Positions 20,973 to 22,272 of a stretch of 64,000 nt of DNA are shown here, piece after piece. The notes below the pieces were generated by a model. The model made no database searches, was not told the origin of the DNA, and saw nothing but the letters and a program-made list of their open reading frames with translations. Source of the DNA: Bacilli bacterium (GTDB taxonomy: Bacteria; Bacillota_I; Bacilli_A; RF39; UBA660); the NCBI GenBank assembly GCA_050948865.1, contig JBMNEQ010000004.1, positions 62,477 through 126,476 of the forward strand, read 5' to 3'. Each line of letters opens with the position of its first letter. Position 1 is the first letter of the stretch. The position numbers were made by a program, and so were the translations under genes.

Positions 20973-22109
20973 ATGAAAAAACAAGGTTTTACTTTAATAG
21001 AATTACTAGCGGTTATAGCTATATTAGGAATAATTTTAGCTATCGCTGTTCCAAATATTGTAGGTTTAATTGAAAAAGCAACAAAGAATGCTTTTTTAGT
21101 TGATGCTAAAAATGTTTTAAGAGCAGTAGATTATTATCTACTTGATAAAGAAGATGTTTCCTCATTAAAAGATTTAGATGTAAATTCTATAGAAAATACT
21201 TTAAATATTGGTAGTTCTAATTATAGTAGTTTTGAGGTATCTTTTGATCAAAATTTTAAACCTTTTATAAAAATAGTCGGTAAAAATAAATGGCAAGGTT
21301 TAATGGCTTGTGGAACTTTTACCAATTTACAAATAGGTTCTGATATTGATTGTGAAGTTCCCCCTTTTCCAGCAAAACTTCCTGGTAGACACTTATGTGG
21401 TAGTGTATTTTATGATGAAAGAGATGGTAATAAATATAAGACAGTTAAAATAGGAAATCAATGTTGGTTTGGGGAAAATCTAAGGTATACGGGAAGTGGT
21501 TGTTTAGTTAATTCCATAGATGATTGGAAGAATGAATCTCCTTATGGGGTCTGTATGATGTATATTGAAGAAGAAGATTATCAGGGTAATGATGTTCCAT
21601 TGTGGGTTAAAAATGAAGAAGTCTTATATCAGTGGGGAGCAGCAATGAATGGCAAATTAAATCCTCAAACTGTAGAAGATCGACAAGGATTATGTCCTAG
21701 TGGTTGGCATATACCATCTGATTATGAATGGAAGGTATTAGAAGCATATGTTGATAGTAAGTATAAAGAAGTGGATGAAGAAGATGAAAATAATGAATGG
21801 AATGATTTGGGTGATGGAAAATATCGCGGTAAAGATGCTGGTAAAAATTTAAAATCAGCAAATAAGGATGAGTGGAATGATCCTTCTGGTGCTGGTACAG
21901 ATTTTTATGGATTTATGGCTCGTCCTGCTGGTTCTCGCATTACATCGGGTATTCTGAACAACGTTGGGACGACCGCGTATTGGTGGACGTCCTCTTCCGG
22001 TGAGGGTTCTGATGCTTGGAGGCGTGGTCTGGTTTCAGACGATGATGGTGTGGAACGTGGTCTGAATTCTCAGGCTAACGGCCGTGCTGTGCGCTGTATC
22101 CGGGACTAA
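20973..22109 (+). CDS. type IV prepilin-like protein fused to a Fibrobacter-succinogenes-major-paralogous (TIGR02145-like) domain, paralog 1
   Basis: Class III signal peptide MKKQG|FTLIELLAVIAIL (G-1, F+1, E+5). C-terminal region has RDGNKYKTVKIGNQCWFGENL, YQWGAAM, CPSGWHIPSDYEW, WWTSSS and a final RCIRD, all matching the Fib_succ_major domain. AAAGGAGG RBS. Confidence 0.8.
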   Translation: MKKQGFTLIELLAVIAILGIILAIAVPNIVGLIEKATKNAFLVDAKNVLRAVDYYLLDKEDVSSLKDLDVNSIENTLNIGSSNYSSFEVSFDQNFKPFIKIVGKNKWQGLMACGTFTNLQIGSDIDCEVPPFPAKLPGRHLCGSVFYDERDGNKYKTVKIGNQCWFGENLRYTGSGCLVNSIDDWKNESPYGVCMMYIEEEDYQGNDVPLWVKNEEVLYQWGAAMNGKLNPQTVEDRQGLCPSGWHIPSDYEWKVLEAYVDSKYKEVDEEDENNEWNDLGDGKYRGKDAGKNLKSANKDEWNDPSGAGTDFYGFMARPAGSRITSGILNNVGTTAYWWTSSSGEGSDAWRRGLVSDDDGVERGLNSQANGRAVRCIRD

Positions 22110-22272
22110 ATTCAGCAAGCCCTTAGGGAGAAGCCTTTTGCTTTTAACCTCCTCCAAGACCGAAGAGACCTTATCAAGTTAATTTTACAATTTACAAGAA
22201 GATTAAATTTATTAAATAAGAATAAAACCTTGTTATAAAGTGAATAATAATATTAAAGGAGGCTTCTTTAAT

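Follow-up and report, generated by a model that had tools for sequence, protein, structure and literature searches.

Why does the 3' end of a pilin-like gene stand out as a GC-rich island in a bacterium with a genome of about 25% GC? The gene lies in a 64,000-nt stretch of a Bacilli metagenome-assembled genome (MAG; GCA_050948865.1, contig JBMNEQ010000004.1, positions 62,477 to 126,476), and we refer to this whole stretch as the window. An initial annotation, made from the sequence alone, had described the end of the gene and the DNA past its stop codon as a recently imported or separately maintained cassette. We propose, with a probability of about 0.7, that the tail is a variable region (VR) derived from a diversity-generating retroelement (DGR), at 21918 to 22107, together with its target-side flank at 22110 to 22166, and that it is either orphaned or served by a template repeat (TR) outside the sampled sequence.

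The gene in question and its neighbor are:

20973 to 22109, plus strand: pilin-like paralog 1, 378 aa, with a prepilin N-terminus (MKKQG/FTLIELL, the slash marking the prepilin-peptidase site) and a FISUMP/Fib_succ_major domain of C-type-lectin fold at aa 158 to 377
22273 to 23322, plus strand: pilin-like paralog 2, 349 aa, built like paralog 1

A GC-Rich, Adenine-Poor Island at the 3' End of Paralog 1

The region from 21885 to 22180 has a GC content of 51.0%, compared to 25.7% for the window and 25.3% for its DNA outside open reading frames (ORFs). Among all 296-nt windows of the stretch (mean GC 0.257, sd 0.044), the flagged interval reaches z = 5.7, so the island persists when it is recomputed as a sliding window. 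The highest-GC 296-nt window (0.517) begins at 21866, and the adenine minimum among these windows coincides with the GC island (0.18 vs. a mean of 0.387). As described in the initial annotation, the composition extends beyond the stop codon: the coding part (21885 to 22109) is 52.9% GC, and the 71 nt after the stop (22110 to 22180) are 45.1% GC.

The shift affects synonymous sites, and here too the earlier description stands. GC at third codon positions (GC3) amounts to 0.41 in the tail, compared to 0.13 in the background (17,794 codons) and 0.14 in the body of paralog 1. Third-position adenine (A3) is 0.07 in the tail vs. 0.40 in the background, while third-position thymine (T3) is unchanged (0.53 vs. 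0.48). The unusual codons are likewise borne out, leucine being encoded exclusively by CTG (three times; background share 0.00) and arginine by CGT, CGC, and CGG in place of AGA.

As a control, the 74 tail residues were recoded by the codon usage of the window in 20,000 simulations. This back-translation predicts a GC content of 0.425 ± 0.014, and the observed value of 0.536 (z = 8.0) was reached by 0 of 20,000 simulations. Amino-acid content explains only part of the tail GC and was rejected as its sole cause, in line with the initial annotation. The body of paralog 1 agrees with its back-translation expectation (z = -0.3). The tail of paralog 2 (23100 to 23322) is shifted in the same way (GC 0.475, z = 8.8 vs. 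the back-translation expectation); therefore, the GC-rich tail is not unique to paralog 1.

The sole other site with 296-nt windows above 40% GC is the acidic N-terminal region (around 59304 to 59350) of a 1376-aa putative surface protein (59285 to 63415, plus strand), where the elevated value appears to be due to a Glu/Gly/Ala-rich content.

The Same Genome Carries Two Complete DGRs

In a DGR, the TR is transcribed, and a reverse transcriptase (RT) acting with Avd copies it with misincorporation opposite adenines. The VR is then overwritten by the resulting cDNA as far as a fixed 3' boundary located beside GC-rich hairpins.

The protein of paralog 1 corresponds to NCBI MGI6330081.1 ('MAG: Bacilli bacterium') and to cluster member P0241 on JGI contig Ga0534105_00077 (787,845 nt). 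The record of this JGI locus (L008; Ga0534105_00077, 528467 to 549636) begins at window position 10940 and shows 1 mismatch in 21,170 nt, with both pilin tails identical to those of the window. The NCBI accessions of the pilins and RTs form one MAG series, and a further locus, L009, was placed in the same MAG. The genome sequence examined amounts to about 105 kb, comprising the window and the loci L001, L002, and L009.

Outside the window, this genome holds two complete DGRs, both in the order target pilin-FISUMP gene, MutS-like gene (MSL), Avd, TR, and RT. The L002 cassette shares a contig with the window, at a distance of about 413 kb, and contains the target P0004, a 108-aa MutS_I-like gene, an Avd gene with a premature stop, a 195-nt TR, and a 401-aa RT. 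The L009 cassette (contig Ga0534105_00645, from the metagenome sample that also yielded L002) contains the target P0012, a MutS_I-like gene, an intact bAvd gene, a TR, and an RT. Over MSL, Avd, spacer, and TR, the two cassettes are 99% identical (L002:11690-12060 vs. L009:9240-9605). The stop in the Avd gene of L002 is a TAT to TAG change, so that an intact Avd is found only in L009. The RT carries the motifs LPIGNYTSQ (DGR-type [LIV]GxxxSQ) and YVDD (YxDD), and its closest PDB match is a 328-aa reverse transcriptase (8ub7, E = 6e-31), presumably the DGR enzyme of the Bordetella phage. For Avd, the match to the NCBIfam model DivGenRetAVD (NF033474) has a value of 1e-12 and falls below NCBI's cut-off; there is also a bAvd match among the precomputed Pfam annotations. 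The distance from the end of the TR to the RT start is 14 nt. The two TRs are:

L002:12243-12437: TR of the L002 cassette, about 50% GC
L009:9793-9982: TR of the L009 cassette, about 50% GC

Each TR matches the 3' end of the adjoining pilin gene and differs from it almost only at TR adenines. For L002, the mismatches between TR and cognate VR fall on 17 of 36 adenines and on 3 of 153 other sites (P = 1e-11), and two 1-nt deletions are present besides. These adenine-confined differences, together with the set of RT, Avd, and MSL genes, identify both cassettes at the sequence level as genuine DGRs, with the MSL+Avd architecture and VRs of the Fib_succ_major type. Within the 64-kb window, neither an RT nor a TR was found by repeat search, word-7 BLAST of both tails, or ORF inspection, the BLAST search returning only the reciprocal match between the tails. 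According to the RT search, the genome has two RTs of this lineage, and the next relatives come from other samples.

Three further observations concern the cassettes themselves. In both cognate VRs (L002:10886-11142; L009:8423-8691), 1-nt deletions shift the reading frame at the C-terminal ends of P0004 and P0012 (...GGRPLLV...); these deletions may be real or may be a consensus artefact from assembling a hypervariable region. The tail of paralog 2 shows the same shifted reading as an alternative-frame ORF of 72 aa (window 23099 to 23317, plus strand). The roughly 110 to 180 nt between the Avd stop and the TR (L009 ~9605-9790, L002 ~12060-12240; ACTGGCGAGAG...GGTGGCTCCCCATGG...) are conserved and rather GC-rich, and may form a structured part of the DGR RNA. 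In a related DGR (L007; GCA_964465805.1, CAYXLG010000054.1:1200-4750), the MSL-Avd-TR unit is tandemly duplicated before a single RT, with TR-like segments at 2097-2316 and 3364-3542.

The Tail Is Homologous to the Template Repeats

The segments of both pilin genes that align with the TRs are:

21918 to 22107, plus strand: VR homolog of paralog 1, GC-rich and adenine-poor, aligning end to end with both TRs
22080 to 22107, plus strand: 3' end of this VR homolog, resembling an initiation of mutagenic homing (IMH) site and ending in ATCCGGGACT, where the cognate TR/VR homology stops
23131 to 23322, plus strand: VR homolog of paralog 2, 71% identical to both TRs, with a mutated IMH-like end and a lost flank

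Among the checks proposed in the initial annotation was a search of the remaining genome for a template repeat. Two homologous TRs were indeed found (70 to 71% identity), each beside an RT, although neither is cognate when differences are allowed at adenines only. The VR homolog of paralog 1 is 70.3% identical to the TR at L002:12243-12437 and 71.1% identical to the TR at L009:9793-9982 (over 190 to 195 nt). It occupies the place expected of a DGR target, the C-terminal end of the C-type-lectin-fold Fib_succ_major domain, and in both paralogs this domain extends to the last residue.

The differences from the TRs are not distributed evenly. In the tail of paralog 1, mismatches affect 19 of 38 TR adenine sites (50%) vs. 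37 of 152 non-adenine sites (24%, P = 0.003), and 23 of the 37 non-adenine mismatches lie at codon position 3. Of the 24 codons in which the TR has an adenine at position 1 or 2, most of them AAY and TAY, 17 encode a changed amino acid, compared to 8 of the 39 others. Therefore, the variable positions are those that a DGR would vary. In the tail of paralog 2, 22 of 38 adenine sites and 33 of 153 non-adenine sites differ from the TR, and the latter changes are biased from GC to AT; changes of this kind also affect its boundary region.

A comparison of the two paralogs gives a similar picture. They are 83 to 96% identical upstream and 69% identical in the tail, where adenine-free perfect runs (GCTCGTCCT, TTGGTGG, CGTCCTCTTC, CTCAGGCT) alternate with blocks of 2 to 6 differing nucleotides, a pattern that suggests DGR variable regions. 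The TR/VR homology terminates at ...CCGGGACT(T). The last 9 nt of the IMH-like region of paralog 1 are conserved, and several non-adenine differences from the TR lie further upstream.

The window's contig also holds a cluster of three more FISUMP paralogs (L001:8919-13173). In one of them (L001_b, 12088-13173), the last ~45 nt equal the TR except for one adenine, the flank is intact, and non-adenine differences are found further upstream, a pattern that could reflect a short-tract homing event.

A Target-Side Flank Accounts for the GC-Rich DNA Past the Stop Codon

Directly after paralog 1 lie two further segments:

22110 to 22166, plus strand: target-side flank, common to the cognate DGR targets and not present in the TRs
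22197 to 22272, plus strand: start of the second unit of a 1300-nt tandem duplication (units starting at 20897 and 22197; 94% identity over the first 300 nt, repeat family D1)

The flank of paralog 1 is 76 to 84% identical to the flanks of VR_L002, VR_L009, and L001_b. The TAA stop of paralog 1 results from a 1-nt deletion (GACTTAAAT to GACTAAAT), and its relatives read on to ...RCVRDLNSASP before their stop. The GC-rich DNA extends past the stop codon because the target-side flank follows the VR and the TAA arose by this deletion. In this sense, the separately evolving 3' cassette of the initial annotation is supported: the tail is homologous to DGR TRs, and what follows it is a conserved target-side flank.

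The cognate flanks fold into GGC-AA-GCCC-GTA-GGGC-GAA-GCC, followed by an 11-bp stem and a run of T's (-32 kcal/mol). A GC-rich target-side hairpin is needed for homing in the BPP-1 DGR, a requirement known from BPP-1 only (PMC3240598). In paralog 1, the boundary element composed of ATCCGGGACT and the flank is still recognisable, with reduced hairpins (-13 vs. -32 kcal/mol in the cognate flanks): hairpin 1 (22114 to 22135) is weakened by lost pairs, and hairpin 2 is present as its 5' arm only (22154 to 22166). The fold of the RNA after the stop of paralog 1 was not significant (z = +2.1), and no Rfam match was obtained for it at E ≤ 1. A terminator at this position was rejected, as no terminator-like site is present.

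The units of the tandem duplication (20897 to 22196 and 22197 to 23496) include the pilin upstream region and share an exact 22-mer at 20899 and 22199. Where the second unit begins, the flank of paralog 1 is cut short and hairpin 2 loses its 3' arm; the same unit provides paralog 2 with its upstream region. We propose that the recognition hairpins of paralog 1 were eroded by point changes and by this duplication at 22197.

Proposed DGR Templating, Not Import, as the Main Source of the Composition

How could a DGR produce a GC-rich tail in such a host? The scaffold codons of a TR would have to be adenine-free, and the adenines of the TR would be randomised in the VR, which would leave the VR adenine-poor and GC-rich even in a host of 25% GC. 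At five low-GC loci (L002, L006, L007, L009, and L011, from four assemblies), TRs and VRs are 46 to 53% GC, and the RT, Avd, and MSL genes at these loci are host-like with 18 to 25% GC. Therefore, the island is a property of DGR templates and targets, not a mark of import, and the codon dialect of the tail consists largely of adenine avoidance, a typical trait of DGR templates, and is not that of another organism.

In an alternative close to one of the readings in the initial annotation, the tail would be a gene fragment acquired recently by horizontal transfer from an organism of higher GC content, with no link to a retroelement. Such an import would fit the sharp compositional step and the codons that are nearly unused elsewhere in the window. 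We find it scarcely credible. The deviation is confined to TR-homologous DNA and the DGR target flank, whose limits coincide with those of the island, and the same composition recurs in the TRs and VRs of the five AT-rich loci beside DGR protein genes of 18 to 25% GC. Only adenine is depleted, with T3 unchanged. A search for a donor with the tail sequence found none: across genome contigs of 185,579 species genomes, a 21-mer specific to the tail of paralog 1 gave 25 matches, all of them chance matches in GC-rich genomes. The description of the tail as recently imported, with foreign codons, is thus not upheld.

Is the Tail an Orphan or a Remote Target?

The tail was probably produced by a DGR whose TR was related to, but distinct from, the present versions, and would now be an orphan that is templated by neither of the present TRs. 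The VR is identical in the window (NCBI MAG), on the JGI contig L008, and in P0242 from a third assembly, a comparison made at assembly level among sequences that maybe represent the same population. TRs of the related DGRs L006, L007, and L011 were rejected as cognate (57 to 63% or no match to the tail). No TR matching the tail was found in the window, in the covered genome sequence, or in pattern scans of metagenome and viral contigs. A family-wide IUPAC pattern for the TR gave 0 matches in genome contigs and 0 in viral contigs. In metagenome contigs, it gave 3 matches, one of which, L003, represents the L002-type TR in a different sample.

Several points weigh against an orphaned, DGR-derived tail. 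The differences from the tail are not confined to adenines for either TR of the genome; therefore, the tail is not callable as a current DGR target. At 56% GC, its TR-homologous part is no poorer in GC than an active VR, and adenine is avoided even where it differs synonymously from the TRs (A is the final base in 2 of 14 such cases). This high GC content and adenine avoidance suggest recent templating and not a long decay in an AT-biased genome, and because both are retained, we think that the tail was probably written from a different TR version. A third TR in the genome is possible, the covered sequence amounting to about 105 kb. Lastly, adenine avoidance does not account for the whole composition. 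Choosing the host codons with minimum adenine raises the expected GC content of the tail from 0.425 to 0.489 with a T3 of 0.74, vs. the observed 0.536 and 0.53. Part of the third-position G/C excess is unexplained by adenine avoidance, which covers ~58% of the synonymous GC excess and was rejected as the sole cause.

These points bear on a second possibility, namely that the tail is an active remote target, rewritten by the RT and Avd in trans from a third, unsampled TR in the genome or on a mobile element. Such a TR would account for a GC content of 0.56 and an A3 of 0.07 that are kept despite 24% non-adenine divergence from the known TRs, and for synonymous differences that are mostly swaps among T, C, and G, avoiding A. 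Distances of more than 100 kb between RT and remote target are documented for non-phage DGRs (PMC5758913), and a small part of the genome was covered. We nevertheless consider this unlikely, as only two RTs of this lineage were found in the genome, hairpin 1 is weakened and hairpin 2 truncated, the VR is identical across the JGI contig, the NCBI MAG, and P0242, and the pattern scans returned no such TR.

Returning to the orphaned VR, a locus on a DGR-free contig of another MAG (L010, the P0007 locus) has paralog tails of 35 to 39% GC. Judged by composition and divergence, the cognate VRs, the tail of paralog 1, the more eroded tail of paralog 2, and such 35 to 39% GC tails form a series from templated to decayed.

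Recombination Among Paralogs

The genome holds at least 12 pilin-FISUMP paralogs. Paralogs 1 and 2 are about 90% identical up to ~21700 and about 50% identical past it, and this drop therefore indicates a recombination breakpoint. Past ~21700, the middle part of paralog 1 is closest to P0007-type genes, while its flank is closest to DGR-linked genes. Exchange among paralogs appears to have moved 3' thirds of these genes, and this exchange does not explain the composition.

Could the tail simply be a segment from another paralog, acquired by homologous recombination as in the pilE/pilS system? The mosaic structure of paralog 1 and the number of paralogs would agree with this explanation, which we regard as very improbable. 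Recombination does not explain an adenine-poor, GC-rich dialect, and among the sampled paralogs no close donor was found (best VR identity 61 to 74%). The P0007 locus was tried as a donor, as it has the ...GRAVRCI(K/R)D ending in common, and was rejected with a tail that is 61% identical and 35 to 39% GC. The silent partial cassettes that the initial annotation had envisaged did not appear either: the window contains no partial copies of the tail, and the paralogs retrieved are all full-length with prepilin N-termini, with no promoterless silent cassettes among them. Recombination has probably acted beside DGR templating and not in its place.

A more elaborate scheme, which we hold to be quite unlikely, would involve two layers of diversification, in which DGRs write hypervariable tips into adjoining genes and recombination moves tips and flanks into other paralogs, or in which a third, unsampled TR keeps the remote tail adenine-poor. 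If such a two-layer system or a third TR exists, DGR-diversified type IV pili would be a feature of spore-forming Bacilli.

A Pilin-Like Adhesin Beside a Tad-Type Operon

23483 to 28038: Tad/Flp-type pilus operon, identified by gene content, directly downstream of both pilin-FISUMP genes

The type IV prepilin signature of paralog 1, consisting of the prepilin-peptidase site (G/FTLxE) and a hydrophobic helix, matches N_methyl PF07963 (6e-8) and TIGR02532 (2e-8), and the structure model shows a long N-terminal helix (residues 8 to 59). The downstream operon encodes two TadE-like proteins, a ParA/TadZ-like ATPase, a CpaF-type ATPase, and two T2SSF proteins (TadB/C-type), and no terminator-like site was found between the pilin-FISUMP genes and this operon. 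Paralog 1 is probably still expressed, together with paralog 2 and the Tad-type operon, as an adhesin of fixed specificity.

Elsewhere in the window, a serpin with a lipoprotein signal is encoded upstream of the pilins (18390 to 19661, plus strand; Pfam Serpin, JGI annotation of L008), a protein type that is uncommon in bacteria. A 408-aa ORF (56723 to 57949, minus strand) resembles an IS30-family transposase by eye and is the only mobile-element-like gene noticed in the window.

Significance and Comparison with Known Systems

With a DGR-derived tail, the compositional island is explained without foreign DNA. Where a genome is very AT-rich, the templates and targets of DGRs form adenine-poor islands of about 50% GC, while the protein genes of the retroelement are host-like. 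This signature could serve to locate DGR targets, including remote or retired ones that are missed by annotation pipelines relying on adenine-only differences. Type IV-pilin/FISUMP adhesins are hereby documented as DGR targets in an uncultured lineage of spore-forming Bacilli, and a graded series of templated to orphaned VRs within one genome bears on the birth and loss of DGR targets.

The closest known class comprises the MSL+Avd DGRs with VRs of the DUF1566/Fib_succ_major type (CLec2), assigned to target category 'd' and architecture D, as in Legionella pneumophila Corby with its target LdtA (Wu et al. 2018, PMC5758913). Like this class, the cassettes of the present genome are chromosomal and not phage-borne, are ordered target, MSL, Avd, TR, and RT, have the VR at the C-terminal end of the Fib_succ_major domain, and show adenine-specific differences in their cognate pairs. 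In contrast to LdtA, the target described here carries a type IV prepilin N-terminus and not a lipoprotein signal, and the host is a spore-forming Bacilli MAG of about 25% GC. The copy in the window further departs from the Legionella Corby DGR in lacking an adjacent cassette and in differing from the TRs beyond adenines.

In the DGR of Treponema denticola (TvpA, with multiple remote targets), paralogous surface proteins with C-terminal VRs are scattered as well. Its remote VRs match a single TR except at adenines, whereas the VR in the window differs at 24% of non-adenine sites, and its accessory gene is of the HRDC type (PMC5758913), in contrast to the cassettes described here.

Bordetella phage BPP-1 has an IMH and a GC-rich hairpin/cruciform (Guo et al. 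2011, PMC3240598), and similarly, inverted repeats that are not part of the TR are found 8 to 45 nt past the TR/VR homology of our cognate pairs. Their loops do not follow the 4-nt GRNA consensus of BPP-1, and their function is putative. In the window, unlike in BPP-1, pairs are missing from hairpin 1, and of hairpin 2 only the 5' arm is left.

In Bacteroides, the adhesive tips of type V pili are reported to contain components that are diversified by DGRs (bioRxiv 10.1101/2024.11.15.621889). A pilus-associated adhesin with a DGR-diversified lectin-fold tip is common to both systems, while phylum and pilus type differ, with a type IV prepilin signal beside a Tad-type operon in the present case. 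The pilE/pilS system of Neisseria shares with the present locus the many pilin paralogs and the mosaic structure seen in paralog 1. Unlike Neisseria, however, the present system shows no promoterless silent cassettes, and its hallmark is adenine-specific templated mutagenesis and not RecA-mediated conversion.

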